This document shows positions 9,579 to 62,803 of a DNA stretch of 64,000 bases, piece after piece; within the stretch, counting starts at the first letter, position 1, and every line of letters starts with the position of its first letter. A program made the translations under genes and the position numbers. Under the pieces are notes generated by a model, which was given only the letters and a program-made list of their open reading frames with translations, was not told where the DNA came from and ran no database searches. Location: positions 34,692 to 98,691 of the forward strand of contig DAXK01000025.1 in assembly GCA_002506365.1 (NCBI GenBank). The letters are read 5' to 3'. The stretch is from an archaeon UBA583. GTDB taxonomy: Archaea; Nanobdellota; Nanobdellia; Woesearchaeales; UBA583.

Positions 9579-10622
9579 TTAAGCTAATCCTTCATAATAC
9601 CCTTGTAAATCCAAATCATAATTATTTTGTGCATACTTTGGACCATTATACTTTTTAGCAATTTGTTGATAATTTTTATTTTTCATATCATTAATAATTC
9701 CATTTTCTTCCAAAAACTTAAAAAAATAATTAATCATAGCATTTGAATCTTTAACTTTAGATAACAATAAATCAGCATCATCACTATTTTCATATCTAAC
9801 AATATTAGACCCTAACATTTGTGAAAAACCAAAACTTGAACTCTTAAAAGCAACAATATCATTAGCATCAAAAGCTTCTACAAAAGCATCATAATTTGTT
9901 TCCTTAGAAACTCTACTAAATGATTCTCCATTTTTTAAAGTGCAATCCACATCATCAAAACCTCTATTTTCTTCATTAAATTTATGACATTCAAATCTAA
10001 CTGATTTTTCAAAAGTTCTCCTATATCCATCCTCTTTAATAATTATGGCATAAATTAAATTCACATCAACATTATTTTTACTAGCATAAGTTTCAAATTG
10101 ATTTTTATTCAAATCATAAAAAATACTAGATTTAAACTTTTCAATTTTAGTAAGCATACTCCCCGTTAACTCAACAACATTAGTTTCAGAATTTAAAACA
10201 GCTCCATCTGAAATTGAATCAAAATCCCAAATATTATCATTATCAACCCCACTTAAAGCTTTTTCAATTTGAGTAAATAAAACACCACAATTTAATTTTT
10301 CATAATCCTTATGATTTTTATCATTACATTTAGTATAATACGAATTTAAAGAATTCCAAGTTGCAGTTTCCTGTTCATTACAACTCTCCAAAGTATCATC
10401 ATTACAAACTTTAACATTACAATTTGACTTTGAAATTTCACATTTTTCAATAATACTCTTTAACTTAAAATCAGAAATACCACCCTCCGCAGTATCAGAA
10501 ACTTCTGAAAACTGAGAAATAACTAACAAAACAACAATTAAAAGTAAAAAAAAACCAACTAACTTTGAAATAGATAACTCTACTCCTTTTTTATTAAAAG
10601 AAAAAATATTTTGAATAGACAT
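9579..10622 (-). CDS. Membrane-anchored protein with a C-terminal DUF3380-type N-acetylmuramidase-like domain
   Basis: N-terminal anchor NKKGVELSISKLVGFFLLLIVVLLVISQF. The C-terminus SSFGFSQMLG...YQQIAKKYNGPKYAQNNYDLDLQGYY resembles the SWGxFQIMG...YNGPxYxxNxYDxKL signature of phage/bacterial DUF3380 muramidases. Confidence 0.6.
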   Translation of the reverse strand: MSIQNIFSFNKKGVELSISKLVGFFLLLIVVLLVISQFSEVSDTAEGGISDFKLKSIIEKCEISKSNCNVKVCNDDTLESCNEQETATWNSLNSYYTKCNDKNHKDYEKLNCGVLFTQIEKALSGVDNDNIWDFDSISDGAVLNSETNVVELTGSMLTKIEKFKSSIFYDLNKNQFETYASKNNVDVNLIYAIIIKEDGYRRTFEKSVRFECHKFNEENRGFDDVDCTLKNGESFSRVSKETNYDAFVEAFDANDIVAFKSSSFGFSQMLGSNIVRYENSDDADLLLSKVKDSNAMINYFFKFLEENGIINDMKNKNYQQIAKKYNGPKYAQNNYDLDLQGYYEGLA

Positions 10623-14080: not shown

Positions 14081-14599
14081 ATGAAATACTCAAACAAAGA
14101 ATTCCACTGTGAAAAATTTGAAAATATAAATCTTGAACTAGAAAATTTTGACAATACAACTTTAGAAAACTGCGAATTTAAAAACTGTGTAATCAATTCC
14201 ATATCAATAAAAAATACTAAATTTCTAAATGTTAAATTTTATAATTGTAAAATAATCGGATTAAAAATTGAAGATTCAAATAACTTATTTCTAGATTTTA
14301 AATTTGAAAATTCAAAAATTGAAGGTTGTGATTTTTCAAACTTAAACATTCAAAATACAAAATTTATTAATTGTAATATAATTAGTTCAAATTTTCAAAA
14401 AACAAATCTTACAAATTCAAGTTTTGAATACTCAAACCTACAAGATTCAATATTTGCAAACACAAATCTTACAAATGTAAATTTTAAAGAATCATTTAAT
14501 TATAATATAAATCCAACTGAAAATAAAATAAAAAATGCTAAATTTTCTCAACCAGAAGTAATAAACTTACTAAAATATTTTAAAATAAAAATAGAATAA
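14081..14599 (+). CDS. Pentapeptide-repeat protein
   Basis: There is a continuous 5-residue periodicity (e.g. NLTNSSFEYSNLQDSIFANTNLTNVNF) across about 150 aa. Confidence 0.8.
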   Translation: MKYSNKEFHCEKFENINLELENFDNTTLENCEFKNCVINSISIKNTKFLNVKFYNCKIIGLKIEDSNNLFLDFKFENSKIEGCDFSNLNIQNTKFINCNIISSNFQKTNLTNSSFEYSNLQDSIFANTNLTNVNFKESFNYNINPTENKIKNAKFSQPEVINLLKYFKIKIE

Positions 14600-25614: not shown

Positions 25615-26169
25615 TTAATTAAATTTAATATTATACTTTTTCTCAAAAATATTAAAAACAAATTCATAAAAACTTTCATTATTTGGAACAAATTTATTCT
25701 CATTCTCAAAATAAAATCTTTTTAAATCAACTAACTTAATTTTTTCAAGTTTTGAAACTTCATCATTTAAAATAAAATTAAACTTATCTCCAAAAACAAA
25801 ATAAGTATGTCTAAATTCATTCTCAAACCAACCACAATTTAACTCTTGTTTAAACCTAAAAATAAATTCCTCACCCAATTCATCTTCGCTAAAATCTAAA
25901 CCAACTTCCTCAATACATTCCCTAACAGCTCCTTGACGACCACTCTCCCCAGTATCAACATGACCTCCAACACACACATCATACTTTCCAGGATGACGAA
26001 CATTATCTCCACGAACTTGAAAATACACATAACCATTTTCAATAACCCAAATATTTGCTGCTCTATGACATAAATTATTTTCATGTAAATCAAAATAATC
26101 TGTAGTTTTTCCAGTAGGTTTATTATTTTCATCAACAATATCAATATCTGCATAAACTTGTTTTTCCAT
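25615..26169 (-). CDS. Nudix hydrolase (IDI-1/ADP-ribose pyrophosphatase-like)
   Basis: Complete Nudix box GGHVDTGESGRQGAVRECIEEVGL. Confidence 0.85.
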   Translation of the reverse strand: MEKQVYADIDIVDENNKPTGKTTDYFDLHENNLCHRAANIWVIENGYVYFQVRGDNVRHPGKYDVCVGGHVDTGESGRQGAVRECIEEVGLDFSEDELGEEFIFRFKQELNCGWFENEFRHTYFVFGDKFNFILNDEVSKLEKIKLVDLKRFYFENENKFVPNNESFYEFVFNIFEKKYNIKFN

Positions 26170-31166: not shown

Positions 31167-34100
31167 TTATAATTGACTAATAATCATTCTAACATAAAAA
31201 CTTGGATGTCCTTTTTGTAATAAAGTATTCAAAATATCATCATCTGAAATACCTCTACTCTTTAAAGACTTAATTAAATGAACTAAATTTTGTTCATAAT
31301 CAGCCATATTAGATACTAAACTTGTAGAATCAATCTTTGGAGCAGGTAAAACATCTTGCTTAACTCTTAAATCATTTAAATCATCTCTAACAAAAGTAAT
31401 TTCTTTCTCTAAACTATTTTTCATTAAATCAAAATCACGAACTCTCTTAACAACTTCTGATCCCGCAAAATTAATTCTATTAATATGTGTATCAACTAAA
31501 TTTACCTTATCAGTCATTAATTCTTTAACTTCCTTCATTAAATCCTCAACTTCATCAACAACAATACCTTTAAAATTTGTAAACTCTTCATTAATATCAA
31601 GCATCTTTCTATTCATAGATTGCTCTAAATTAACAATTTTATCATCAGTTAACTCTCTTAACTCAGCTTCAAGTTTTTGGAAATCATCCATCAGCTCATT
31701 TTCACGATTTGATAAAGCATCAACCTTAGATTTATTTTCTTCCTCAATTTGTAAAATTCTTGAATTAAAAGAAGACTCTAAAAACATTAATCTTTCTTCA
31801 ACTTTAGTATTTAACTCATTCTTTAAAGCTAAATTATCTTCAACTAACTCCCTTTCTCTTTGAGAAATTGACTTAATTCTCTCATTTGCTTCATCCTCAA
31901 TTGCAATAATTCTTGAATTAAAAGAAGACTCTAAATTCATAACTCTCTCCTCAATCCTCTCATTTACATTTTGACTTAAATCACTTAAATCCTCAACAAA
32001 TTCTCTTTCCCTTTGAGAAATAAATAATAATCTTTGTTCAGAATCAGTCTCAAACTTAGAAACTTTCCCAGTAAATGTTTTTTCTAAATCATCAAACTTT
32101 TTATCAATAATTCCACCAAATTCTTCATTAATATTTGTAAAACTCTCAACAAATTCCTCCTCTCTTTTTTCAAGAGTTAAAACTCCACTCTCAATTTTTT
32201 TCTCAATTCTCTTTTCAAAAGAAATAACACTTTGAGTTAAATCATCTTCCCTAGACTCAACCATCTCAACTTTCTTCTCAACAGTTTGAACTTTACTATT
32301 AATTGAATCTTCAACAATCTTTAACATATCTAAACTTTGTTCAACTCTATCCTCAACAAACTTTAAATTTTTATCAACAAACTTTTTCTCAATTGCTTCT
32401 AATTTTTCCTTTTGAAAATTAAATAAATTATTTACTTTCTCATTAAAAGTATCTCTAAATCTATCCTCATTAGCTTGAGACTTCTCTTTTTCTAACATAA
32501 TAACTTCAGAAATTGAATCTCGTATAGAATTACCAAAAGTTTCAATATCTAACTTTCTAGCTTTTGTAGTCTCCTCTAACTCCCCAACAAAAACATCTTT
32601 CTCAACTTCTAAATTTCTCTCCTCAGTCTTAATTTTATTTAATTGTTCATCTAAACTCTCAACATACTCTTTTGTATGATTAGCAATTTCAGCCTTAAAC
32701 TTCCCAAGTTCAGAAATCGCAACATTTTTTTCATCCTCTAAAGTTAATAACTTTTTCAAAAACTCTTCTTCCTTTAATTTTAATTCATGTTCAAATTTTT
32801 CTAAACTTAAATTAAATTCTTCCTCACTTTTTTTAATTGAAAAAATTACTTTATCTTCAACATCAGCTTTCAAATCAGACCTAAAATCATTAGTCTCAGC
32901 TTTAATCTTAGTTAATTGATCAGAACAAACAGTAACTTGTTTTGCTAAAACTTCTTCAACTTCAACTCTTAAACTATCAAAAACCTCACCAGATTTTTCC
33001 ATATCTCTAGCAATTTCTCTCTTAGAACTTGAAAGTAACTCAACAATCTCAGAATGAATCTCAGTTCTCTCATTTTGAAGTAATTCTCTCTCATGATTAA
33101 TAGCTTCAACCTTTCCAGATAAAGATTCTTCTTGAATTTTTAACCTTTGTTCAAAATTTTCAATATGAACTTCAAATTGTCTATCAAACTCCTCAACTTG
33201 TTCTTTTAATTTTGCAGATACAACATTTGCTAAAGAAGTTTCAATATCCTTATTCTCAATTTCAAACTTTTGAAAAATTGAATCAATTCTTAATTGAGTT
33301 GTTTGAATAGACTCTGAAAATCTTTCCTCAAAACTTTCCTTTTCCTTCTCTAAACTTTCTCTCTCAAAATTCACTAAATTTAAACTCTTCTCAAACTTTT
33401 CCTCAACTTTAGCTACTTTCTTTTCAAACTTTAAAAAATTAGAATCATACTTTTTATTAAATTTCTCAATTTGAACATTTAATTTTTTAGTAACAGTCTC
33501 AAACAATCCAGCTTTTACATCCTTATTTGATTCCTTAACTGACAAAATAGCTTCCTTAACTTGATTTTTAGACTCAATAAATAATTTTGAAAATTTCTCA
33601 TTAAAATTATTTCTCTCATTTGCTAACCCTTCCCTATCTAAAGATAATTTTTTAATTTCTGAATCTAACATTAAATCTCGCGCATCCAATTCTTTCTCAA
33701 AACTATTTAACTCATCACTTAAAGTTTTCTTAAATTCATCAACTTGTGATAATAATCTTCCTTCAACTTCATGTTTTAAAATATCAAACTTTTGATTATT
33801 ACTATCCTCAATCCTACTTAAAGTATCATTATTAATTTTAACTTGATTATCTAACTCAAACTCTACATTACTTTTCGTATCAGACACTAAAGAACTAAAC
33901 TTATCCTCTAAACTAACTGCGATATTTTCTAAATCTTTTCTATCCTTAGTTAACTGTTTAATTTCAGAACTAAACTTTAAATCTCTTGCATCTAATTCTT
34001 TTGTAAAATTAATTAATTCTGTATCTAAACTTTTTTTAAAATCATTAATTTGAGTAAACAACTTTTCCTCAACACTATCTTTTAAATCTTTTAACTTTTC

Positions 34101-35261
34101 CTTTGAATCTAATTCAACTCTCGCTAAAGTTTCATTATTAACCTTAATTTGATTATCTAAATCAAATTTAATTTGTGCTTCCGCCTTAAAGATTTTATCT
34201 TTAATATCCTTATTAAAAATTTTCTTTTCTTTTTCTAAATCAAGTTTTTTCAAAAGTTCATCCATTTCAGCTTTAAAAGCTGTGATTTTATTTTCTAAAA
34301 CTGAAACATCCATCCCAATTTGAATCTTAACTTTTTGCATAAAATCTTTCTCTTTTAAAGTTAAATCAGATTCCCTATTTGACAAAACTTTCAATTCCTT
34401 ATCTAAAGACTCAATATAATTTTTAACATGATTTGACAAATCAGCCTTAAAAACTTTTAATTCAGATTCTAAATCATTTTCCTTTTTACTAAAATCTTGA
34501 TGATTAGCTTGTAATTCAATTTCAATTCTATGTAATAATTCCTGTCTAATTTTTTTCTCAACTTGCTCAAATTGATTATCAACATTTAACTCAAAATTAC
34601 CAAATACTTTTTTTTGATTCTCAGTAAATTCATCTTCAAATAAATTCACCTTATCAACAACTTCATTAACCTTACCTACAATAAATTGTGCTTGCCTTCT
34701 TTCCTCCTCACGAATTTCAACACTATTTTTTTCCTCAAACTTTTCATTACTCTTAATTAAATCATTAATTGATTTTTTCATATCAGAAATTTCTAAATCT
34801 GTTTTTTTATGTAAAGCAATTGTAGACTCAATAGCTTTTGATAATTTAGAAGAAATTAAACCCTCAATACTAATTTGTAAATCCTCTGAAACATTTTTCT
34901 TAAAAGTTTCAAATTGTTTTTGTAAATTAGAATTAGTCTTTAATCCATCTAATAATTTATCCTCAAAACTCTCCAAAATATTTGTAAACTTTTTATGTGA
35001 TTTTTTATGTTTAAAATCAAACTCACCTTTTAATTTATCAAACTCATCCTCTAAAATTAAATTAAATTCTTTACTAACTTCCTTTTTAATTTTAGGCATA
35101 CTTAATTTTTTTAAAATCGGATTAACTTCATCTAAAATTTCAGATTTCAAATTAGTCAAAATATCTTCATTTTTAATAGTTGTAGATTTTTTAGAAATTG
35201 TTTTTTTAGCTGTTTTAGTTCCAGCTGTTTTCTTAACGATACTCATAACATTTTTTAGCAT
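31167..35261 (-). CDS. Giant 1364-aa cytoplasmic coiled-coil protein with modular internal repeats
   Basis: E/K/L-rich heptad-like sequence throughout, with no signal peptide or TM helix. Repeated modules, e.g. FTKELDARDLKFSSEIKQLTKDRKDL versus FEKELDARDLMLDSEIKKLSLDREGL, and LESSFNSRIIAIEDE versus LESSFNSRILQIEEE. Short globular tail GISDDDILNTLLQKGHP. Confidence 0.8.
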   Translation of the reverse strand: MLKNVMSIVKKTAGTKTAKKTISKKSTTIKNEDILTNLKSEILDEVNPILKKLSMPKIKKEVSKEFNLILEDEFDKLKGEFDFKHKKSHKKFTNILESFEDKLLDGLKTNSNLQKQFETFKKNVSEDLQISIEGLISSKLSKAIESTIALHKKTDLEISDMKKSINDLIKSNEKFEEKNSVEIREEERRQAQFIVGKVNEVVDKVNLFEDEFTENQKKVFGNFELNVDNQFEQVEKKIRQELLHRIEIELQANHQDFSKKENDLESELKVFKADLSNHVKNYIESLDKELKVLSNRESDLTLKEKDFMQKVKIQIGMDVSVLENKITAFKAEMDELLKKLDLEKEKKIFNKDIKDKIFKAEAQIKFDLDNQIKVNNETLARVELDSKEKLKDLKDSVEEKLFTQINDFKKSLDTELINFTKELDARDLKFSSEIKQLTKDRKDLENIAVSLEDKFSSLVSDTKSNVEFELDNQVKINNDTLSRIEDSNNQKFDILKHEVEGRLLSQVDEFKKTLSDELNSFEKELDARDLMLDSEIKKLSLDREGLANERNNFNEKFSKLFIESKNQVKEAILSVKESNKDVKAGLFETVTKKLNVQIEKFNKKYDSNFLKFEKKVAKVEEKFEKSLNLVNFERESLEKEKESFEERFSESIQTTQLRIDSIFQKFEIENKDIETSLANVVSAKLKEQVEEFDRQFEVHIENFEQRLKIQEESLSGKVEAINHERELLQNERTEIHSEIVELLSSSKREIARDMEKSGEVFDSLRVEVEEVLAKQVTVCSDQLTKIKAETNDFRSDLKADVEDKVIFSIKKSEEEFNLSLEKFEHELKLKEEEFLKKLLTLEDEKNVAISELGKFKAEIANHTKEYVESLDEQLNKIKTEERNLEVEKDVFVGELEETTKARKLDIETFGNSIRDSISEVIMLEKEKSQANEDRFRDTFNEKVNNLFNFQKEKLEAIEKKFVDKNLKFVEDRVEQSLDMLKIVEDSINSKVQTVEKKVEMVESREDDLTQSVISFEKRIEKKIESGVLTLEKREEEFVESFTNINEEFGGIIDKKFDDLEKTFTGKVSKFETDSEQRLLFISQREREFVEDLSDLSQNVNERIEERVMNLESSFNSRIIAIEDEANERIKSISQRERELVEDNLALKNELNTKVEERLMFLESSFNSRILQIEEENKSKVDALSNRENELMDDFQKLEAELRELTDDKIVNLEQSMNRKMLDINEEFTNFKGIVVDEVEDLMKEVKELMTDKVNLVDTHINRINFAGSEVVKRVRDFDLMKNSLEKEITFVRDDLNDLRVKQDVLPAPKIDSTSLVSNMADYEQNLVHLIKSLKSRGISDDDILNTLLQKGHPSFYVRMIISQL

Positions 35262-35513: not shown

Positions 35514-35596
35514 GTAGGGGTCGCCCAGTCCGGTCAAAGGCGCTGGATTTAGGCTCCAGTCTGTAAAGTTCGTGGGTTCAAATCCCATCCCTTACA
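35514..35596 (+). tRNA. tRNA-Leu (anticodon TAG), long variable arm
   Basis: Acceptor GTAGGGG/CCCTTAC. Anticodon stem CTGGA/TCCAG with loop TTTAGGC. Long variable arm. T-arm GTGGG-TTCAAAT-CCCAT. Confidence 0.85.
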
Positions 35597-35606
35597 CTCT
35601 TTTTTA
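35597..35606 (+). terminator. Oligo-T tract directly after tRNA-Leu
   Basis: CTCTTTTTTA. A T6 run is the usual archaeal termination signal. Confidence 0.4.
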
Positions 35607-35746
35607 AGTATTAAAAATTTATTGAGAATTTTACTATATAAAATAATTTGAGGAGATATAATATAATCAATAGATCCAGTTTAATAATTAGTTCAAATAT
35701 TATTTTAAAATTAAAGAAAAATTAGTTATAATTTTACTATATAAAA

Positions 35747-36937
35747 TTAACCTAAAAAATTAAGATTTAATTTGGCTCCTTTTGATTTGCCAGAATTATG
35801 TATTTCAGCTTTAGCTCTAAATGAATCCATATGTTTATTTAAAGCAGCATTTGCAATCTTATCTGGAATATATTCAGCAAACCAAAAAGGATTTGAATCT
35901 TCATTTCTATCAAGTTGATAATTTTTATTAGATTTTATTAAAGGTAAATATACATTTTCTCTAAAAAATTTAATTTCTTCACATGCTTGTAATTCCTGGG
36001 CATTTTGCATATTATTTTTATATTTAAAAGGTTCAAATTTAATTAAATCAACTAAGTAAAGATTCATTAAAATATTTATAGTCCAAATAATTAATTTAAA
36101 ATTTTTTGATTTTGGATTAATATCATATATAATTAACTTTAAAGTATTTAATGACTCACGATTGTTATTATTATATTTATCAGTTCCTTTTTTATCAACT
36201 ATTTTAAATTTTTGTTCCCCTATTTTCTCCCCATAAATCGCATAAAATAATGTTTTTAAAAAAGGTTCAGAATATCTATAGTTTGAATTTTCCAAATTAT
36301 CAATATATCTTTCAATAGCTTTTTTAAATTCATACATTGCAGAGTTTTTAGATTTAATATATTTATTAAAATCCACATAAGAATTATACTCAACTAATGG
36401 ATTATTAACACTACTTGAATTACTCCCATCAGTAAATCTTGGTTTTTTTCTAATTAGATTTACTTTATTCCAAATACTTGGATCTACTGGTTTAACACTA
36501 CTTCCAGACTTACCTGGCCTTCGCATAAAAAATGGAAATAATGTCCAAAATGCAGGGTCATAAGTTTTAGTTTCATCAGTAATCATCCACACATTATCGT
36601 TTGAATCATAATATTCTGTATCATGAACACTTTCACCAAAAAGAACATATTCTCCAAATTTTTTTTCATAATCACCAATATTTCCATTAATAATCATTTC
36701 ATAAAATTTTCTTAAACCCAAACTATCTATATCATTAATCCATTTAGGCATTGATTGTTTTTTTCTTTGTTTTGTTTTCAAACCAGCATTAGCAGTTCCA
36801 GGTAAAATTGTAGCTGCAGCAATTCCTGCAACCCCCATAGCCCCTTTTTTTAAAAAATCACGTCGACTAGAATTAATATTTTCATCTGGAATATCATGTC
36901 CCATATTTTGTAAAGCAGATTTTATTTTTTCAAACAT
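35747..36937 (-). CDS. Twin-arginine (Tat) signal-bearing secreted protein, function unknown
   Basis: SRRDFLKKGAMGVAGIAAATILPGTANAG is a textbook Tat signal. I recognised no family in the mature part. A TATA box lies about 26 nt upstream of the ATG, so the transcript looks leaderless. Confidence 0.7.
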   Translation of the reverse strand: MFEKIKSALQNMGHDIPDENINSSRRDFLKKGAMGVAGIAAATILPGTANAGLKTKQRKKQSMPKWINDIDSLGLRKFYEMIINGNIGDYEKKFGEYVLFGESVHDTEYYDSNDNVWMITDETKTYDPAFWTLFPFFMRRPGKSGSSVKPVDPSIWNKVNLIRKKPRFTDGSNSSSVNNPLVEYNSYVDFNKYIKSKNSAMYEFKKAIERYIDNLENSNYRYSEPFLKTLFYAIYGEKIGEQKFKIVDKKGTDKYNNNNRESLNTLKLIIYDINPKSKNFKLIIWTINILMNLYLVDLIKFEPFKYKNNMQNAQELQACEEIKFFRENVYLPLIKSNKNYQLDRNEDSNPFWFAEYIPDKIANAALNKHMDSFRAKAEIHNSGKSKGAKLNLNFLG

Positions 36938-36969
36938 AAATCAAAACTTAAAAAATTAATATATAAATG

Positions 36970-36993
36970 TTTGTGACTTTTAAAAGTCACAAA
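36970..36993. promoter_or_regulatory. Perfect 24-bp palindrome between the surface giant and the Tat-protein gene, abutting the latter's TATA box
   Basis: TTTGTGACTTTT|AAAAGTCACAAA read directly. TTTATATA follows on the minus strand. Confidence 0.7.
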
Positions 36994-37005
36994 AGAATAA
37001 AATAA

Positions 37006-40000
37006 CTAATTATTTTTCCTTAAATAAAAACTAATTGAACCTTTATTTTTACTAACTCCATTATCAAAAATATCATAATCCAAAGTTAATTTTGGTGTTT
37101 GAGAACTTCCAAAAAAATAATCCCAACCAGAACCAGTTGTTGAAACTAAATTATTATCTTCTAAAATATCAAAAATTAAACCTAACTCATCATTATTAAT
37201 AAAATTCTCAAATTTTTTTGAATCCACTGAAATTAAACCTTTATCTCCAAAATCCAATCTATCCACACTCAATCTAAACTCTCCACTCATCTTATCAGAA
37301 CGATAATTCCCTCCAAAAATAAATTCTAATTTTAAATCTAATGAACTTGAATCTAAATCAACAGGATAATTATCATTATTATCTAAACTTGTAATATCAA
37401 AATAATATTTATTAGCAACATTTGATTCCTTACTTAAAGTAAAACTTATTTTTTCTTCACGAGTATTAACTGGAACATTTGAAATAATATTCCCTTCCTC
37501 ATCAGTTCCCGCATTCGGATTATAATTTTTAAAAGTTTCAACTGAAGAAATTAAATCTACATTTGAATACTCAATCATCTTTAAATTCACATTACAAGAA
37601 CCTGGACTCACACTAGCACTCTTAAAACTAATTTGTTTTCCACTTCTAGATTCTAAACCTCCAATATATGATCCATTTTGAGGAATTAATTCAACTTTAA
37701 AATCTATATTACTTAATTCACCACCATAACTAATTTGTAATTTATTAGTCATATTTGCTTTAAATACAATATATTTATCTTCATCCGAACCATGAACCTC
37801 TTTAGGTTCAGATGTCTCATCAACTCCATCAATAACAATACTAGTTGGAGTAAAAGTTACAACTTTATCCTTATCTGTTGAAGTAATTTTAACAAAATAA
37901 GCTCCTTCACCAGTATGAGTTGCAACTAAACCAGAACTATCGCCAACTAAAGGTAACTCTTCAAATAATTGATTAACAACAAATCCTTTACCTAATTTAT
38001 CATTTTCAATTCTAATAAAACCAATTTCATTTTTCTTAGTTTTTTCAGCATGTAAATAATATTCATTATCTTTTCCTTCATTACAAACTCCATAATAAAC
38101 AATTGCAGCATCATCAGTATATAAATTTAAATCAGGTGATGTGAATTTAATTTTCCCTGAAACTGATTCTCCTGAATAAAATGGTTTAGGAGTAATTGAA
38201 GACTCAGAACTTCTTGGAACAATTCTTGACTTACTAGTATCAATTGTAAATAAATTACTTTCACTTGAATCTCCAAAAATTGAATCACACTTAAACCCAG
38301 CACCAGCACCTAATAACCCAGCTGAAAAAGAACACTGAGCAAATAAAGTTTCAGCCTTATGAGCAATTGGAAACTCTTGAACCTTAGTTTGTTTTGTTCC
38401 CTTCATATCATAACTATGTGTAATTCTTAACTTATTATACCAAACTCTAGCAGGAGCTTCAGTAATAATTTGAGACTCTTGTTTACTTCCACCATCTCTA
38501 ACAATTAAAGTTTTAGACTTAAAACTACCAGCATTAACTTCAGAACTTACAATAACTCCCTCATCTGGACAAAATTCAGAATTATCATATCCCTTATCAC
38601 AAATTAATTCAATCTTTGAAGTAATTGCTTGACCACCAGATAACGCTCCATAAGTAAATAAATATCTAATTGATAACTGACCTGTAACTGGGTCATAACC
38701 TTGTAATCTGGATTCAGGAAATGGAGGTCCAAAAGTTGGTTCAACTTCATTAGCTTCAATTGAACTTAAAATATTTTCAGTTAAAGCAGACCAATCCCCA
38801 GTAATTGCTCCTAAACAAGCTTTATTAATAATACTATCAGAACTTAAACCACTTTGAGATAAAATTGAACCATCATAACGACTTTCAAACTTTTCCTTAT
38901 TTTTATTCATTTGACCAAAAAAATCAAAAGTAGGTTTTCTCTCACCAGAACCTTCAGCCCCAGACTGTGAGTTATAAGATTGTTGTAATTCAGGTAAAAT
39001 AACATTTGTTGCAACATCACAAACCGCTTGCCCAAATAATCTTTGACAATAACTACCCTTAACTGTTCCAATCTTTGCTTGTTCCAAACAATCATAAATT
39101 CCTTGTTGAATTTTTAATAAATTTTTAGAATGTGAATAAGTATCAACAATTGCTCCACATCTAATAGATGATAAAATACTAACTGATGAAGACTTACCAG
39201 AAACTCCTGACTCTTGTGACCATTCACCATCTCCCTCTTCAACTGTATCAGCACCAAAAAAATTACATTTAGTATCATCAAAATTTGGAGCTCCAGCACT
39301 ATAACAAACTTGTCCCTTAAAAGCTCCAAAATTAACTGAATCAGTTTCTTTATCATAAGGCAAACACTGTTTATCAAAATCTAATTCTGCTTCAACAGTA
39401 TGTGAAAATCCACTTGAACTTTCATCAGAATATTTTTTTCCACTACCTGAAACCCACTTTCCACCAGTCACTGTATCAGTATTACAATCACCACCAACAT
39501 TTGGTTCAAATTTACCTACAACTTTATCTCCTTGAGTATAACTTACCCCATGAGAATATTCATCTTTACTCATAAATTGATCTTGCGCCCCATCACACTT
39601 ATATGGTGCAGGTAATCCAGCAATTCTATCACAAGCCATATATAACTCTCTATCAGCTTTATTATATTCAGCCTCCTTATCATCTGAATCTGATACTTCA
39701 ATTGATGCTCTATCCCAAGCATTTTGAAACTTAGCATAAGTACAATAAACAACTCCACCTAATGATGCCCATTTCATACCTTCAGTAAATTGTTCAGTAA
39801 CCTTAATTGTTTTATTCAAAAACGCTTGAGCTTTTTCAATTTTTTCAACAGACAACCAATCTTGAGTATTCTCAACAACAACTTTTGTTTGAAAATAAAC
39901 TGGATTAACTGTATCAATTGGAACATCAATTTCTTCTAACCCATAAACAATACTTAAACCAAATCCAATTTCAATTTCATCAAACCAATCTCTCTCATCT

Positions 40001-42018
40001 CTCTCCTCTTGAGTATCAATTTTTTTAACAGATACAGGAACAAAAACAGTTAATAAATTACTATCTTTCTCATAAGCATAATTTACTCTACTTGATTCAA
40101 CATTTACATACTTTGTATCTGGATAAGCTTTTGTATCTTTAATTACTCTAACTGAAGTAATATCTTTAACTTGACTTGAACCTAAATATTGAAATTGTGC
40201 AATAATTCCAACCTCAACATTCCCACTCCCAGTTCTTTGTCCTTCTTCTAATTGTAATAACTCAGCTTCATAAACAGTTGAAGGTGTAACTGTAATTTCA
40301 ACATCATCCCACAAAGTATTTCCAGCATCAAAAGTTACTGAAAAATCCTCAATTTTTTCATTTCCAAACTTATCAACTAAAACCATACAAATAGTATTTT
40401 TAGTTTTAACACTAGATACTTTTGTAGAATTTAAATCACTAAACTCTAAATTTTTTTCTTGTAAAGAAATTAAAGTTTCAAAATTTCCATCTGAATCAGA
40501 TTTTAATTCATTCTTTTGAGAAATTAAACTAAGTAAACTTAATTGACCATCAGGAATATTAGGAATTGGTTCTGAATTTCCATCATCTTCAGCGTTATTT
40601 AAATTTCTAAAAAATACATTTTCATAACTATTACAAGTAACTTTATCTCCATCTTCATTAGTTGTATCCTCAGAAATTGTAAAAATCACCATATTAACAT
40701 TTGGTTTATTTGTTTTTCCTTCAACATTTTGTAAAAAGAAATGAACATTTTTTTCTTCAAAAACGGCATCTGGTTTTAAACTATCTTCAACAATTCCAGG
40801 TTTCTCATTATCATAATTAATTTGATGAGCTTTATGAGCTAAATTTCCTGCTGCATCAACAACTTTTAAATCTAAACTATTTTTTCCATCCTTTAAATTT
40901 AATTCTAACTCAATATTCCCACCAATAATTTCTGAAGTCTCAGTTTTATTATTAAAAGTATAATTTAACTCAATCCCATCAGCTGAAATATTTAAAACAA
41001 TAGAATTTGAATTTGTATCAATATTTTCCCCATCTAAAAATGCTTTCTTTTTTCCATCAGTATTTGACTTAAAATAAATTTTAGAAATATCAATTACTGG
41101 TTTTTCCTTATCAACTAAAACAGAACTAAAAACTTGCCCAGTAAAAATATTTTTATTAACTAAATCTGTTGAAATAATTCTAACTGAATTTAAACCTTCC
41201 GCTAAATTTGTAATTGTAAAATTAAATCTATTAGCATCTAAAGTAACTTCTTTTAAAGCTCCTAAATTTGCTAAATCACCATCAAGATTTAAAACATAAT
41301 ACAATGGATATTGTGAATCTGAAACTGATCCAGAAATAGTTACTCTTTTTTCATTTGTAATATTATCAAAACTATCAACTAAAATATTATTTGGAAATTT
41401 ATTATAATCAACATTAAACTCCTCACTATAAGTTTCAAAAGAATTATCTAAAGAAGTAACTTGAAATCTAAAAACATTTTCTCCATTTTCCAAATAATTT
41501 TGATAAACATTTACAAAAGTTTTCTCAACAACTGAATCTTCAATAATTATTTGCTTTAAAGCGCCAGTTTCCTCATTTCTATAATCAAAATTTGAAACAG
41601 AATCAAAATATTGTTGACTTGAACTTGTTCCAGGATTTAATCTTTTAAACATCACACCAGAAATATTAATTGAAAAAACATTTGTTGGATGAACATTTCT
41701 AAAAACTACATTAGAATTTACAGGAATAAATTCATCCTTAATTTCAGAATCTAATTCAATAACAACTGGTTCTGAAAAAACATCAATTGCATCAATATAA
41801 TTCTCATTAGAATATAAACTAACTCGAACTCCTTGCGATGCTGAAAATGTAACATCAACTTCTCCACTTTCATAGTTGGATTCACTAAACTCAAAATTTG
41901 GAAATGCGAAAATAAAATTCCCAAAACTAAAAAATAAAACAATCAAACTAATTTGCTTTAAATAATTTGTATAATTCATACCAAACATCCTAAAAATCAC
42001 TTTATTATAGTTTCGCAT
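37006..42018 (-). CDS. Giant 1670-aa secreted or N-terminally anchored surface protein with Ig-like modules and a Cys-rich core
   Basis: N-terminal hydrophobic ISLIVLFFSFGNFIFA. Ig-like boundaries VDKEKPVIDIS and YDNEKPGIVED. About 20 Cys are concentrated between residues ~745 and ~1400. No C-terminal TM helix. Confidence 0.8.
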   Translation of the reverse strand: MRNYNKVIFRMFGMNYTNYLKQISLIVLFFSFGNFIFAFPNFEFSESNYESGEVDVTFSASQGVRVSLYSNENYIDAIDVFSEPVVIELDSEIKDEFIPVNSNVVFRNVHPTNVFSINISGVMFKRLNPGTSSSQQYFDSVSNFDYRNEETGALKQIIIEDSVVEKTFVNVYQNYLENGENVFRFQVTSLDNSFETYSEEFNVDYNKFPNNILVDSFDNITNEKRVTISGSVSDSQYPLYYVLNLDGDLANLGALKEVTLDANRFNFTITNLAEGLNSVRIISTDLVNKNIFTGQVFSSVLVDKEKPVIDISKIYFKSNTDGKKKAFLDGENIDTNSNSIVLNISADGIELNYTFNNKTETSEIIGGNIELELNLKDGKNSLDLKVVDAAGNLAHKAHQINYDNEKPGIVEDSLKPDAVFEEKNVHFFLQNVEGKTNKPNVNMVIFTISEDTTNEDGDKVTCNSYENVFFRNLNNAEDDGNSEPIPNIPDGQLSLLSLISQKNELKSDSDGNFETLISLQEKNLEFSDLNSTKVSSVKTKNTICMVLVDKFGNEKIEDFSVTFDAGNTLWDDVEITVTPSTVYEAELLQLEEGQRTGSGNVEVGIIAQFQYLGSSQVKDITSVRVIKDTKAYPDTKYVNVESSRVNYAYEKDSNLLTVFVPVSVKKIDTQEERDERDWFDEIEIGFGLSIVYGLEEIDVPIDTVNPVYFQTKVVVENTQDWLSVEKIEKAQAFLNKTIKVTEQFTEGMKWASLGGVVYCTYAKFQNAWDRASIEVSDSDDKEAEYNKADRELYMACDRIAGLPAPYKCDGAQDQFMSKDEYSHGVSYTQGDKVVGKFEPNVGGDCNTDTVTGGKWVSGSGKKYSDESSSGFSHTVEAELDFDKQCLPYDKETDSVNFGAFKGQVCYSAGAPNFDDTKCNFFGADTVEEGDGEWSQESGVSGKSSSVSILSSIRCGAIVDTYSHSKNLLKIQQGIYDCLEQAKIGTVKGSYCQRLFGQAVCDVATNVILPELQQSYNSQSGAEGSGERKPTFDFFGQMNKNKEKFESRYDGSILSQSGLSSDSIINKACLGAITGDWSALTENILSSIEANEVEPTFGPPFPESRLQGYDPVTGQLSIRYLFTYGALSGGQAITSKIELICDKGYDNSEFCPDEGVIVSSEVNAGSFKSKTLIVRDGGSKQESQIITEAPARVWYNKLRITHSYDMKGTKQTKVQEFPIAHKAETLFAQCSFSAGLLGAGAGFKCDSIFGDSSESNLFTIDTSKSRIVPRSSESSITPKPFYSGESVSGKIKFTSPDLNLYTDDAAIVYYGVCNEGKDNEYYLHAEKTKKNEIGFIRIENDKLGKGFVVNQLFEELPLVGDSSGLVATHTGEGAYFVKITSTDKDKVVTFTPTSIVIDGVDETSEPKEVHGSDEDKYIVFKANMTNKLQISYGGELSNIDFKVELIPQNGSYIGGLESRSGKQISFKSASVSPGSCNVNLKMIEYSNVDLISSVETFKNYNPNAGTDEEGNIISNVPVNTREEKISFTLSKESNVANKYYFDITSLDNNDNYPVDLDSSSLDLKLEFIFGGNYRSDKMSGEFRLSVDRLDFGDKGLISVDSKKFENFINNDELGLIFDILEDNNLVSTTGSGWDYFFGSSQTPKLTLDYDIFDNGVSKNKGSISFYLRKNN

Positions 42019-42228: not shown

Positions 42229-42738
42229 ATGAGTGATAATACAACCAAAAACAAACAAACAAATTCAACCAAAAATGTATATTTTTCAAACATTCCAAGA
42301 AGAAAAATATATGAAGAAATGATGAATTTTGAAGAAGGTTTAATGGAATTAGATATTTTACAATATAATCAAATTAATTTTGATAAATTTAAAGATAAAT
42401 ATAATAAAGATACTCTACATTCTATGAAACAATCATATCACAATGTAAAATCTTTAATGATTATGTTTTTAGAAAATAGAAAATACGCTAAAGAACAAGA
42501 ATACTTACAAGATTTAAAATTATTAAATTCTGATCAAAAAACAACAAATAAATGTTTAAGATTAAATAAAAATTTAACTTTAAAAAATAAATATTTTTTA
42601 TTAAAATTAGATTACATATTTAGAAAACACAATCATTTGGAAAATTTAAATCAAGCTCAAAAAGTGTATAAAGATTTCATTAAATTTAATGATTTAATGC
42701 CTACATTTTTAGAATTAAGAAGAGATAATATGAAATAA
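42229..42738 (+). CDS. Hypothetical basic K/N-rich protein
   Basis: ORF track only. No motif recognised. Confidence 0.4.
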   Translation: MSDNTTKNKQTNSTKNVYFSNIPRRKIYEEMMNFEEGLMELDILQYNQINFDKFKDKYNKDTLHSMKQSYHNVKSLMIMFLENRKYAKEQEYLQDLKLLNSDQKTTNKCLRLNKNLTLKNKYFLLKLDYIFRKHNHLENLNQAQKVYKDFIKFNDLMPTFLELRRDNMK

Positions 42739-59597: not shown

Positions 59598-60035
59598 TCA
59601 ATAAAATCTATCAATAAATGGTTTAATTTTATCTTTACACTTCTCAATCGAAAATACAAACTCATATTCATTAATCTCATCAATTCCTATCCACTCATAC
59701 CCTAAATGTTCAGATGATAAAACTGGTTTTCCTTTTTCAAATTCATAATTATCACAAAAAGATAAACCAAAAATAAAAGTAAATTCAGGTTTATTAGATG
59801 GATTAGCATAGTAATTAATTGTATGAATTTCATTTAAATTAATTCCTAATTCTTCAACCCCTTCTCGTTTTAAACCATCAATTGAATCCTCTCCAAAATC
59901 ATAACTCCCTCCAACAAAATCCCATAAATTAGCACTTTCAGATTTATAATCAGATCTTTTTAAAATTAAAATTTTTTTAGTTTCTTTATTATAAACAACA
60001 CACTTTTGAGCAAAATAAACATTCTTTAAAGCCAT
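59598..60035 (-). CDS. Nudix hydrolase
   Basis: Nudix box GGSYDFGEDSIDGLKREGVEELGI. Confidence 0.85.
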   Translation of the reverse strand: MALKNVYFAQKCVVYNKETKKILILKRSDYKSESANLWDFVGGSYDFGEDSIDGLKREGVEELGINLNEIHTINYYANPSNKPEFTFIFGLSFCDNYEFEKGKPVLSSEHLGYEWIGIDEINEYEFVFSIEKCKDKIKPFIDRFY

Positions 60036-60150: not shown

Positions 60151-60867
60151 ATGATAAAAGAAAACTCAATTCAAATTGACATACTAAGAAAATTTAAACA
60201 CCACGAAAAATTAAAATATTCTCAAATCCATAACAAACAATTAGCATCAAGTTCTCAATTTGATTACCATTTAAAACAATTAATAATAAACCAATTAATT
60301 GAAAAATCAAAAGATGATTACTACATTTTAACATACAAAGGACTTCAACTAATCTCAGAAATTGATGGGACAGAAATTAAAATTAAAAAAAAACCATTTG
60401 TATGTGGCTTTTTACTAGCATATAATGAAAATGGAGAAATTCTACTAAATATTCGTAAAAAGCAACCTTTTCTTAATTTTTACAATGTTCCAGGTGGAAA
60501 AGTTGATCTTGGTGAAACCACAAAACAATGCGCTATAAGAGAATTTACTGAAGAAACTGGAATAGAATGTAAATCTGTAAAACTTAAAGCAATCTGTGAA
60601 AAATTAAGTTACAATGAAAATGAAGAATTAATTCACCACATTATAGGATATTTCTACACAACAAATAATTCATATGGAACTTTAGTTAAAGAAAATGATG
60701 AAGGGAAAAACGAATGGATAACTTTAAACAAATTAAAAAATAAATTAAAATTCCCCGAATTAGAATACTTAATACCAAAATTAATTGAAAATAATGATAA
60801 TATTTTAATTGAAAATTATAAAAGAATTGTAAAAAATAACATAATGAACTTTGAAATAATAAACTAA
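60151..60867 (+). CDS. Winged-helix DNA-binding domain fused to a Nudix hydrolase domain
   Basis: N-terminal IDILRKFKHHEKLKYSQIHNK...HLKQLIINQLIEK (wHTH pattern). Nudix box GGKVDLGETTKQCAIREFTEETGI. Confidence 0.75.
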   Translation: MIKENSIQIDILRKFKHHEKLKYSQIHNKQLASSSQFDYHLKQLIINQLIEKSKDDYYILTYKGLQLISEIDGTEIKIKKKPFVCGFLLAYNENGEILLNIRKKQPFLNFYNVPGGKVDLGETTKQCAIREFTEETGIECKSVKLKAICEKLSYNENEELIHHIIGYFYTTNNSYGTLVKENDEGKNEWITLNKLKNKLKFPELEYLIPKLIENNDNILIENYKRIVKNNIMNFEIIN

Positions 60868-62317: not shown

Positions 62318-62803
62318 ATGAATTCAAAAAATAAAAATAATCCAGAAAAAATAAATCAAAAAAATTCAAAATATGGAGAAAATGGATTTAGAAATATTTC
62401 AGCAGTTGTAATAATAAATAAAAATAATAAAAAATTACTATTCCAACAAAGACCAAAAGAAACCAAATGGAATCCAGATGTATGGGGATTTTTTGGAGGT
62501 AAATTTGAAAATAATGAAACTAAAGAACTTTGCGCGATTCGTGAAATAAAAGAAGAAACAAATCTAAATTTAAACATAAATAAATTAAAATATATTAATA
62601 TGTATATTTATGAAAATACTAATTGTTATTTTTTTTATTACTTTTTAGAAGAATCTGAACTAAAACATTTTAAACTACAGGAAGGACAAGACTTTTGCTG
62701 GAAATCATACCATCAAAGTTTAGAACTTGACTTTGGAACAGTAAAAAACTGGCAACTAAACTTTCTAAACAATGAAATTAAAAACATATTAAAAATTAAT
62801 TAA
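62318..62803 (+). CDS. Nudix hydrolase (variant box)
   Basis: GGKFENNETKELCAIREIKEETNL, with the box Gly replaced by Asn. Confidence 0.8.
   Translation: MNSKNKNNPEKINQKNSKYGENGFRNISAVVIINKNNKKLLFQQRPKETKWNPDVWGFFGGKFENNETKELCAIREIKEETNLNLNINKLKYINMYIYENTNCYFFYYFLEESELKHFKLQEGQDFCWKSYHQSLELDFGTVKNWQLNFLNNEIKNILKIN

Follow-up and report, generated by a model that had tools for sequence, protein, structure and literature searches.

CDI (CdiA-CT/CdiI) and Rhs loci are polymorphic toxin loci that carry orphan CT/immunity cassettes, and in these orphan modules a truncated copy of the large gene stands together with a partner gene. In Neisseria, pilE and pilS bring about antigenic variation by gene conversion, and diversity-generating retroelements are known in DPANN archaea. 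Host recognition and attachment by DPANN archaea is an open question with very few candidate molecules. In other Nanoarchaeota, the highest densities of non-synonymous SNPs fall in hypothetical cell-surface proteins (PMC6142677). The locus described in this report, two neighbouring genes in the 64-kb stretch of DNA that we analysed (the window), provides a concrete candidate. It encodes a giant protein and a partner with a twin-arginine (Tat) signal, and judged from sequence the pair is a candidate cell-surface recognition module. We tentatively favour the reading that the two are exported separately and bind to one another outside the cell.

The features of the locus are collected in Table 1. 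The preliminary description had placed a co-directional pair of 396 and 1670 codons, 68 bp apart, beside a tRNA-Leu gene, and these coordinates hold; the giant gene is the upstream member of the pair. The tRNA-Leu gene is conserved, is convergent with the Tat-signal gene and forms the distal edge of a variable slot, and the hypervariable cassette ends ~40 bp short of it. Between the two genes, a T-rich tract follows the stop codon of the giant, a perfect palindrome, GTGACTTTTAAAAGTCAC, occupies positions 36973-36990, and a TATA-like box, TTTATATA, lies at 36960-36967, ~26 nt before the ATG of the Tat-signal gene. In sequence comparison ACAAAC(A/C)TTTATATAT is common to the window and the related loci L004 and L005. 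We regard these elements as a putative promoter and terminator, and because the Tat-signal gene has a TATA-like box of its own, the two genes are probably transcribed separately. Homologues of the divergently transcribed 169-aa gene are found directly upstream of the giant in L004, L005, L006, L008, L014, and L018 and not in L007 or L011. The gene is a frequent, non-universal neighbour of the giant, and its membership of the module is doubtful.

Table 1. Positions of the features of the locus in the window.
Feature	Position	Strand	Basis
tRNA-Leu (anticodon UAG)	35514-35597	+	ARAGORN; Rfam RF00005, 49 bits
Hypervariable cassette: Tat-signal gene codons ~85-396 and 3' flank	35638-36684	-	Comparison with L004
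Tat-signal protein gene, 396 aa	35747-36937	-	ORF list
Signal peptide region of Tat-signal gene, codons 1-52	36782-36937	-	Alignments
Intergenic region	36938-37005	-	Sequence
Giant gene, 1670 aa	37006-42018	-	ORF list
Giant C-terminal tail, second variable stretch, residues 1561-1670	37009-37338	-	Identity and dN/dS versus L004
Giant hypervariable patch, residues 1321-1480	37579-38058	-	Pairwise identities, dS
Giant conserved Cys-rich alpha/beta core, residues ~720-1320	38059-39861	-	Conservation profile
Giant hydrophobic segment, residues 19-43	41890-41964	-	Hydropathy scan, homologue N-termini
Divergently transcribed 169-aa gene	42229-42738	+	Homologues near giant in relatives; no family match

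The giant contains a single hydrophobic segment near its N-terminus, and the hydropathy scan reveals no other transmembrane candidate. A conserved FPxFxF motif follows this segment in the homologues. Gene callers begin the gene at M11 or M14 (nt 41988 or 41979), which shortens the protein to 1660 or 1657 aa, and one of these two codons is likely the real start. The protein had been described as signal-anchored; the N-terminal hydrophobic segment is indeed present, but it resembles a cleavable Sec signal more than an established anchor. The C-terminal tail has neither a transmembrane segment nor a known sorting signal, and the C-termini of the homologues are polar. Searches of Pfam, NCBIfam, PDB, PADLOC, and PHROGs returned no match to the giant save weak Ig-like ones, and neither an S-layer domain nor PGF-CTERM was matched in Pfam or NCBIfam. 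Evidence for the Ig-like modules first proposed for the giant is weak. Big_13 and Glucodextran_B both match sub-threshold at residues 343-402, Big_13 with 19.2 bits where the cut-off is 27 and Glucodextran_B in 11 of the 14 giant homologues (best 5.5e-5). The AlphaFold2 model of residues 560-1330 (pLDDT 60) has a long helix pair, beta domains, and a helical bundle, of which only the beta-sandwiches found matches in Foldseek against PDB and BFVD, all to generic Ig-like folds at E ~1e-3. The core contains ~18 invariant or near-invariant cysteines, a pattern that fits an extracytoplasmic, disulfide-bonded protein, and dN/dS versus L004 is 0.09 at residues 961-1320 and 0.32 at residues 801-960. 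The 14 homologues, found among 5.8 billion proteins, are 1435-1778 aa long and 31-100% identical, and all lie on Nanoarchaeota-type contigs of a small, rare clade of tiny, symbiotic-type DPANN archaea with ~25% GC; the giant is present in 3 of 185,579 species genomes.

The 396-aa protein contains SSRRDFLKK at residues 23-31, followed by a Gly/Ala-rich h-region and TANAG, and it matches TIGR01409 at 24.3 bits, above the curated cut-off of 16.7, confirming the twin-arginine signal originally read from the translation. It alone among window ORFs of at least 45 aa has an RR motif near the N-terminus. In the alignments, a conserved n-region, MFxKIKxxLxxxGHxIP, precedes SRRDFLKK, the Gly/Ala-rich h-region, and an A-x-A-type cleavage site. 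R25, R26, F28, and K30 do not vary across 15 sequences, conservation in the A-x-A columns reaches 84% and 95% over 62 sequences, and RRxF[LM]K is invariant although identity in the mature part falls to ~22-30%. The mean Kyte-Doolittle hydropathy of the h-region is 1.59 in the 396-aa protein and its giant-neighbour relatives versus 2.38 in the Sec-type segments of the giants. The Tat h-regions consist of ~58% G/A/S/T versus 21% in window ORFs, and such a Gly/Ala-rich segment of low hydrophobicity stands out from a proteome whose G+A content is merely 8.9%. Furthermore, PF10518 recognises 11 of 15 family members (best E 8.6e-7), a PDB search with the family profile finds the Tat signals of NosZ, AioB, and EfeB, and PGAP labels two orthologues 'twin-arginine translocation signal domain-containing protein'. 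Both partners thus carry export signals, and the 396-aa protein would presumably use the Tat pathway. No tatA or tatC was found among the ORFs of the 64-kb window or in the listed Pfam hits of genes that flank related loci, a scope (64 kb of the source genome and at most 24 kb per relative) that is too little to count as absence.

The pair recurs in relatives, in line with the proposal that the two genes belong together. A Tat-family gene adjoins the giant in 10 of 11 distinct lineages, and the pairing was reached from both ends, from giant homologues and from the Tat-family profile search; one family member found by the profile search only (P0044) abuts a 1670-aa giant that is 39% identical to that of the window. 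The two genes are co-directional in the window, L004, L005, L008, L009, and L010, and convergent and abutting in L006, L007, L011, and L018. In the remaining lineage (L014, L015, and L016) the giant has no Tat-family gene within ~9-10 kb.

Between the window and L004, amino-acid identity is 85.6% for the giant and 88.1% for the coiled-coil gene beyond the tRNA. The first 84 residues of the Tat protein are 73.8% identical, and from residue 85 onward identity is 21-22%. At the DNA level, identity is 85-89% on both sides of the cassette, blastn finds no match inside it, and the breakpoints are sharp. The giant has its own variable block: the patch is 59% identical against 88-92% for the backbone, its dS is 0.72 against 0.32-0.36, and it is the least conserved region of the giant in distant pairs. 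The tail varies as well (68% identity, dN/dS 0.50). The segments between the variable blocks are conserved, with 90% identity at giant residues 1481-1560 and 87% at the DNA level from the intergenic region into the 5' end of the Tat gene. The patch and the Tat protein vary jointly between the window and L004 and between two copies of the pair in L007, and more weakly between L009 and L010, where the patch is 97% identical against a backbone of 73-82% and the Tat proteins, at 77%, are the most similar pair; this co-variation rests on two or three comparisons of tightly linked segments.

The locus L007 contains, as assembled, a 2.9-kb tandem copy that comprises giant residues 1101-1715 and the Tat gene. 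The blocks of the two copies are 100% identical (dS below 0.01), apart from the Tat gene and the giant patch, whose dS is 0.59, and the mature parts of the two Tat paralogues differ with a dN/dS of 1.44. The extra giant copy is a 5'-truncated 3' third without a signal peptide, followed by a second partner gene. L007 is a short-read MAG, and the duplication could be an assembly artefact of strain variants. Orphan truncated copies of this kind are absent from the window and from the loci other than L007.

The alternative that survives best is that the two genes are uncoupled neighbours, fast-evolving exported proteins in a recombination-prone slot, their adjacency reflecting inherited gene order and their variability linked tracts. 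The order giant, tRNA-Leu, coiled-coil gene, rpoN, MFS is that of conserved chromosome, and the wider region from radB through these genes to gatB is syntenic at most loci, with tRNA-Leu beside or near the pair in L001, L004, L005, L006, L009, L010, and L018. Synteny inherited within a narrow clade could account for most of the pairing. The slot between giant and tRNA holds varying cargo: nothing in L014, where tRNA-Leu lies directly beside the giant; one Tat gene in the window, L004, and L005; two in L010; a Tat gene and Fic in L009; and a Tat gene, an MNT/HepT pair, and a phosphatase in L018. One relative, L020, has the converse arrangement to L014, a family member with no giant nearby. The patch and the cassette are less than 2 kb apart, and linked recombination in a hot spot could yield co-variation without any interaction. 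Against this explanation, the pair is kept in L007 and L011 despite altered gene order on both sides, it survives a change of relative orientation, and it is duplicated as a unit in the L007 assembly. Moreover, conserved segments separate the variable blocks, and therefore a single recombination tract fails to explain the pattern. We consider uncoupled neighbours somewhat unlikely.

A second alternative is that the C-terminal region of the giant is a polymorphic effector delivered to neighbour or host cells, that the Tat protein is a folded-exported immunity partner guarding the cell's own envelope, and that orphan cassettes switch the variable part. A large secreted protein does lie beside a small, apparently co-varying gene, the truncated, signal-less copy and second partner gene of L007 resemble an orphan module, and the dN/dS above 1 between the L007 partner paralogues is in keeping with this alternative. 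Two further hints are at noise level: two family members match the PoNi_N immunity domain very weakly (E 0.009), and one relative sits in an IS-rich patch with an RHS-domain gene ~4 kb away. However, Pfam, NCBIfam, and PADLOC reveal no toxin domain, and the patch lies inside the protein with a conserved stretch behind it, whereas the toxin domain of such loci is terminal and preceded by a demarcation motif. The partner, at ~300 aa and from a family with conserved motifs, is also unlike typical immunity proteins, and an effector with its immunity partner is in our view quite unlikely.

The mature part of the Tat protein bears on a third alternative. The preliminary description saw no recognisable domain in it, which holds in that no Pfam or NCBIfam model covers the family or matches the mature part, but relatives do exist: the profile search at E<=1e-3 identified a ~300-aa family of at least 118 clusters, defined at 50% identity. 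PDB sequences matched nothing in the family beyond the signal peptide. As far as these searches reach, the family is previously undescribed. Its fold is probably helical; the AlphaFold2 model of the 396-aa protein is helical with a pLDDT of 42, which is unusable as fold evidence. The wider family shares the motifs PPGI..D, EPA, NPxLxxFxxGIxxYFxxW, W...HY, ExPLxK, and IRGPPYY, and a series of conserved polar positions (D, E, N, E, D, H/Y, E, R). The RR motif is kept in 63 of 89 near-full-length relatives; ~30% are without it, some of these having a Sec-like signal instead, and no conserved metal-binding motif was seen. These results give no sign of cofactor loading; in the preliminary description, Tat export had been taken to imply folding or cofactor loading beforehand.

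With its conserved polar positions, the family looks more like an enzyme or a fixed scaffold than like a pure binding partner, and the protein might be an exported enzyme that modifies or lyses the envelope, with the giant as substrate, scaffold, or unrelated neighbour. The giant-neighbour copies in L006, L011, and L018 keep ~27 of 30 consensus positions. The 396-aa protein is a divergent member that keeps 16 of 30, with four of the conserved acidic or His positions lost, and in the L004 and L005 copies 11 of 30 remain; on this explanation the window copy would be degenerate and possibly non-catalytic. The Sec-like signals on some members would also suit an enzyme, since the fold is then independent of Tat. 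Yet no enzyme family in Pfam or NCBIfam matches, and both the co-variation with the giant patch and the dN/dS above 1 are left unexplained, making this alternative improbable. A mobile element at tRNA-Leu, where the preliminary description proposed to look for insertion, or diversification by a diversity-generating retroelement is very improbable: variable DNA does abut the 3' side of the tRNA gene, but the window ORFs include no integrase, reverse transcriptase, or transposase, the tRNA end has no att-like direct repeat, neither patch nor cassette is repeated elsewhere in the 64-kb window as a template would be, the GC content of the cassette (22.9%) resembles that of the window (25.3%), and the locus is syntenic across the clade, so that we rejected the tRNA-integrated island and largely rejected the retroelement target.

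On the binding-pair reading that we favour, the locus would be a lineage-specific two-protein module of the cell envelope in a small, low-GC Nanoarchaeota (DPANN) clade. The giant would be exported via Sec and present Ig-like beta-sandwiches, a disulfide-rich core, and a variable C-terminal region of ~350 residues. The Tat-family partner would be exported separately and released outside the membrane, judging from its twin-arginine signal and conserved A-x-A site. The giant would make contact through its patch (residues ~1321-1480) and the Tat protein through its mature part. Homologous recombination among divergent alleles or cassettes, with the conserved flanks serving as homology arms, would reshuffle both interfaces. 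The most likely role would be variable cell-cell (host) recognition or attachment. The undescribed interaction system envisaged at the outset fits the recurrent pair, the export signals, and the joint mosaic variation; binding between the two proteins, their surface location, the use of Tat, and attachment to a host are what we infer. A more specific proposal, which we deem unlikely, is a cassette-switching surface recognition or effector-neutraliser pair, in which a swappable giant patch and a cognate Tat partner are exchanged by recombination and set the range of hosts or neighbours. We know of no such determinant of host or neighbour engagement that has been defined genetically in DPANN archaea.

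The locus has a hypervariable patch mapped in each partner, and natural allele swaps (the window versus L004, and the two L007 copies) could supply controls for cognate versus non-cognate pairing. The family of at least 118 clusters, mostly with Tat signals, is new to Pfam and NCBIfam. If complete genomes of the clade encode TatA and TatC, this would mean that strongly reduced archaea retain the Tat pathway for a passenger that is not a redox protein. Even if the pairing were mere synteny, the account of a recombination hot spot and of a new domain family would keep its value.

Compared with known Tat substrates (TIGR01409, PF10518), the 396-aa protein shares the S-R-R-x-F-L-K motif, the moderately hydrophobic Gly/Ala-rich h-region, and the A-x-A site, but its mature domain matches no known passenger and has no evident cofactor-binding motif, and the RR is missing from the aforementioned share of relatives. 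The giant resembles archaeal S-layer and large Ig-like surface proteins in its Sec signal, size, beta-sandwiches, single-copy gene, and core chromosomal neighbourhood. It differs from them in having no S-layer Pfam domain, C-terminal anchor, or PGF-CTERM, and its Cys-rich core is atypical. The full-length gene and truncated copy of L007, with identical flanks around a divergent block, recall Neisseria pilE/pilS; here there is one extra copy in one lineage, and the window has no silent copies.

The likeness to CDI and Rhs loci extends to a giant secreted protein, a variable C-terminal part, an apparently co-varying small gene, sharp recombination boundaries, and the orphan copy of L007 as that contig is assembled. 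In contrast to those loci, the present one is archaeal, has no toxin domain or demarcation motif, and carries its variable block internally; its ~300-aa partner is exported and often convergent, and no CdiB- or T6SS-type secretion partner accompanies it. The Nanoarchaeota surface proteins of Jarett et al. 2018 (PMC6142677) are different proteins from thermophilic Nanoarchaeota, and the part of that paper drawn on here reports no two-gene pairing, Tat signal, or cassette structure. The same part describes exported hypothetical proteins of a DPANN symbiont that evolve fast and have a proposed role in host recognition, features in which they resemble the pair described here.

The giant, a secreted protein of 1670 residues, and the 396-residue Tat protein, named for its twin-arginine (RR) signal, are encoded in the same direction beside tRNA-Leu with 68 bp between their ORFs, as the preliminary description had it. 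The window has a GC content of about 25% and carries common archaeal core genes (secY, ftsY, a family-B DNA polymerase, gatA, gatB/E, radB, TFB and GAPDH); its contig is also contained in a bioreactor metagenome. Between 30.5 and 44.5 kb, no structured RNA was found besides the tRNA. In the spacer there are a palindrome, a tract rich in T and, 26 nt upstream of the Tat-gene ATG, a TATA-like box. Because this box is kept in the window and in two related loci, L004 and L005, the Tat gene probably has a transcript of its own, which may be leaderless. The palindrome is common to the window and L004, not to more distant relatives, and may act as an operator or form a terminator hairpin.

Features of the window, with position, strand and basis or remark
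Feature	Position	Strand	Basis or remark
1192-aa protein	2906-6484	+	CarboxypepD_reg, bacterial macroglobulin (MG3/MG4), CARDB, Ig-like repeats
347-aa protein, N-acetylmuramidase domain	9579-10622	-	PF11860, E 7e-20
Four NUDIX-domain genes	25615-26169, 59598-60035, 60151-60867, 62318-62803		
1364-aa protein	31167-35261	-	directly after tRNA-Leu
tRNA-Leu	35514-35597	+	ARAGORN, Rfam; anticodon UAG
Hypervariable cassette	35638-36684		no blastn match to L004
396-aa ORF, Tat protein	35747-36937	-	ORF call
Perfect 18-nt palindrome GTGACTTTTAAAAGTCAC	36973-36990		between giant stop codon and Tat-gene TATA-like box
1670-aa ORF, giant	37006-42018	-	ORF call
Hypervariable patch of the giant	37579-38058		residues about 1321-1480
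169-aa protein	42229-42738	+	divergent from giant; conserved SNIPRRKIYEE motif

Other genes of the window deserve mention. The 1364-residue protein appears to be mostly coiled coil and has no signal peptide; relatives keep a coiled-coil gene (866–1335 aa) at the same position. Its family matches are confined to the coiled-coil tail of ZorA models (E about 4e-7), probably a compositional effect. The 169-residue protein has no family match and could act as a regulator or simply be an unrelated neighbour; its gene is divergent from the giant in most syntenic relatives and is not beside the giant in L007 and L011. The 1192-residue protein is probably a second large surface-exposed protein of the window, and the PF11860 domain is of a peptidoglycan-cleaving enzyme type, here encoded by an archaeal genome. 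The four NUDIX genes, of which one also encodes a fused winged-helix domain, are many per 64 kb for an apparently reduced genome.

The giant has one hydrophobic segment (residues 19–43). As to its supposed Ig-like modules, an AlphaFold2 model of residues 560–1330 (pLDDT 60) contains beta-sandwiches, but the Pfam evidence is below threshold (Glucodextran_B matches in 11 of 14 homologues), and Foldseek comparison of the model with PDB and BFVD gave generic Ig-like or beta-sandwich matches only. Beyond the weak Ig-like matches, no model in Pfam, NCBIfam, PDB, PADLOC or PHROGs matched the protein, and a profile search of PDB sequences returned nothing. Fourteen homologues of 1435–1778 aa were found among 5.8 billion proteins, the giant is present in three of 185,579 species-representative genomes, and scans of genome and metagenome contigs added a single lineage (L014–L016); the named relatives are "Nanoarchaeales" or "Nanoarchaeota archaeon" MAGs. 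Conservation is highest in a cysteine-rich core (residues about 720–1320, with some 18 invariant or near-invariant Cys) and drops over the last 350 residues.

Near its N-terminus the Tat protein has SSRRDFLKK, after which come a hydrophobic stretch rich in Gly and Ala and a cleavage-type site, TANAG. The twin-arginine signal claimed for it was upheld by the curated model TIGR01409 (24.3 bits; cut-off 16.7), and it alone among the window's ORFs has an RR motif near the N-terminus. A word-based homologue search with this protein matched only itself and, repeated with a 10-sequence alignment, gave two proteins only, the other candidates having probably been crowded out by matches to signal-peptide words. 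With a profile made from the proteins next to the giants, 118 clusters (representatives at 50% identity) were recovered at E ≤ 1e-3, 64 of them at E ≤ 1e-10, in 1.84 billion proteins. Judged by these profile matches, the family to which the partner belongs is undescribed and numbers at least 118 clusters; the partner had rightly been called a protein without recognisable domain, as its mature domain is covered by neither Pfam nor NCBIfam models, but it is no orphan. PADLOC and PHROGs held no informative family either, and among PDB sequences the family profile met only Tat signal peptides (NosZ, AioB, EfeB and similar proteins). Members, mostly of 250–400 aa, have in common the motifs PPGI..D, EPA, NPxLxxFxxGIxxYFxxW, SIFxAA, W...HY, ExPLxK and a C-terminal IRGPPYY. 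The window copy is divergent (16 of 30 consensus positions kept), and the giant's neighbours in L006, L011 and L018 keep 27 or so. An AlphaFold2 model from 15 sequences reached a pLDDT of 42 and gave no usable fold. Likenesses to alginate lyase (an NNHSYW-like 'TNHY' motif) and to alpha-helical pore-forming toxins were dropped, as no search supported them. Two longer proteins, P0059 (887 aa) and P0144 (622 aa), have the family domain at the C-terminus and no RR motif, and the N-terminal part of P0059 has no Pfam match; both may have arisen by fusion or by faulty gene calling.

Of 89 near-full-length family members, 63 have an RRxF[LM]-type motif; in the others a KR variant or a Sec-like signal takes its place. 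The mature sequence has become nearly unrecognisable, yet the RR motif, a weakly hydrophobic h-region and the A-x-A site have stayed the same, which argues that the Tat-type signal of the family is functional. Neither TatA nor TatC was found in the 64-kb window or among the Pfam matches listed for the flanking genes of related loci, in each case a small part of the genome. A literature search returned no report of Tat in Nanoarchaeota, Woesearchaeota or Pacearchaeota, and in the searchable literature TatC is reported only for some Nanohaloarchaeota. The proposal that Tat export implies cofactor loading found no support: no metal-binding motif was seen, and many relatives lack RR, some carrying Sec-like signals instead.

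The context of the giant was read in eleven distinct lineages. The Tat gene lies downstream and co-directional in the window, L004, L005, L008, L009 and L010 (the last with two tandem copies), and abuts the giant convergently in L006, L007, L011 and L018. The expected co-occurrence thus held in all lineages read but one (L014–L016), the sole lineage with a giant and no Tat-family neighbour, where tRNA-Leu directly follows the giant. The record of L014 (CAYSDY010000001.1, a 345-kb contig; also L015 and L016) is titled 'uncultured Methanosarcinales archaeon'; the stretch of L014 that was read is 26.8% GC, with giant, tRNA-Leu and coiled-coil gene ordered as in Nanoarchaeota loci, and the record label or binning looks wrong.

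Adjacency alone could be inherited order, because most loci share one backbone (radB, 169-aa gene, giant, tRNA-Leu, large coiled-coil gene, rpoN, MFS, gatB). The giant and Tat gene are still paired in L007 and L011, where the surroundings differ on either side. The pairing was reached from the Tat-family side too, since P0044, a member found by the family profile only, adjoins a 1670-aa giant 39% identical to the window's. The family also occurs outside this context: L020 (a 47% GC contig) has a member among IS elements with no giant nearby. At positions 9000–15000 of L020, P0057 sits in a patch of about 41% GC on a contig of 47–52% GC, with transposase, integrase and RHS-domain genes around it, which may reflect horizontal transfer of the family into a different organism.

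Accessory genes in the slot between the giant and tRNA-Leu differ between lineages (a Fic-domain gene at 7191–8048 of L009, an MNT/HepT toxin-antitoxin pair with an Exo_endo_phos gene at 8469–9917 of L018, and small unknown ORFs at 14094–16136 of L006), which suggests that the slot is a local hot spot where genes are gained and lost. That the giant and Tat protein are unlinked neighbours within a recombination hot spot, a reading to which the changing slot lends itself and the pairing in L007 and L011 does not, is a doubtful explanation.

The variable parts were compared between the window and L004. DNA identity is 85–89% from the upstream gene over the full length of the giant and the spacer to about codon 84 of the Tat gene; blastn gives no match across the cassette, and identity returns about 40 bp from the tRNA. 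The corresponding amino-acid identities are 85.6% for the giant, 88.1% for the coiled-coil gene, 94.7% for the 169-aa gene and 73.8% for residues 1–84 of the Tat protein, as against 21% from residue 85 onward. In other lineage pairs the two proteins diverge roughly in proportion (80% and 77%, 61% and 42%, 59% and 45%), and the window/L004 difference is therefore read as allele replacement. Within the giant, identity falls to 47–60% at residues about 1361–1480 and 57–70% at residues 1561–1640. The raised dS of the patch (0.72, backbone 0.32–0.36) suggests that an older allele was imported and that faster change is not the whole cause. Between L009 and L010 the giant patch is 97% identical and the backbone 73–82%, and their Tat proteins, at 77%, are the most similar of any pair. 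At the level of sequence, the giant and Tat protein are a recurrent, co-diversifying pair of a rare DPANN clade, the co-variation being drawn from few, tightly linked comparisons.

A 2.9-kb tandem duplication in L007 (11300–14209 and 14265–17200; same DNA as L013), read from a short-read MAG, comprises the last 615 codons of the giant, residues 1101–1715 (a 625-aa ORF with no signal peptide), and a second Tat gene. The copies consist of 100% identical blocks except at the giant patch (dS 0.59) and the Tat gene, the divergent interrupting blocks being 64–82% identical; the mature parts of the Tat paralogues have a dN/dS of 1.44. The duplication could be real cassette architecture or an artefact of assembling strain variants from short reads.

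Each of the two proteins has an export signal, and the signals differ in type. Our best explanation, held tentatively, is that the giant and its Tat partner are exported separately, bind each other outside the membrane and are reshuffled by recombination. The giant would pass through Sec and fold outside the membrane with disulfides, and the partner would pass through Tat and then be cleaved. The variable patch and the partner's mature domain would bind each other, and recombination across conserved flanks would swap both. The role of the pair would most likely be host or neighbour recognition, which fits the elevated non-synonymous variation that PMC6142677 reports in hypothetical surface proteins of other Nanoarchaeota. 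The preliminary description's reading of the pair as an undescribed attachment or host-interaction system is supported in part.

An effector and exported-immunity pair with orphan cassettes is unlikely: the arrangement of the locus is suggestive, but no toxin domain was found and the variable block is internal. That the partner comes from a family of exported enzymes and is degenerate in the window is improbable; the window copy is indeed divergent, and the PDB matches of the family end at the signal peptide. A mobile element or diversity-generating retroelement (DGR), despite the tRNA-Leu beside the pair, is very improbable, as the window has no template repeats, reverse transcriptase, integrase or att repeats: permissive blastn for a DGR template gave AT-rich noise only, a repeat search ruled out att repeats, and the locus is no tRNA-borne insertion. 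Silent cassettes in the window were likewise ruled out by tblastn.

The pair resembles polymorphic surface or toxin loci in layout. It departs from polymorphic toxin loci in their defining features, the toxin domain being absent and the variable block internal. That it represents a cassette-switching recognition or effector-neutraliser system in DPANN archaea seems rather unlikely.
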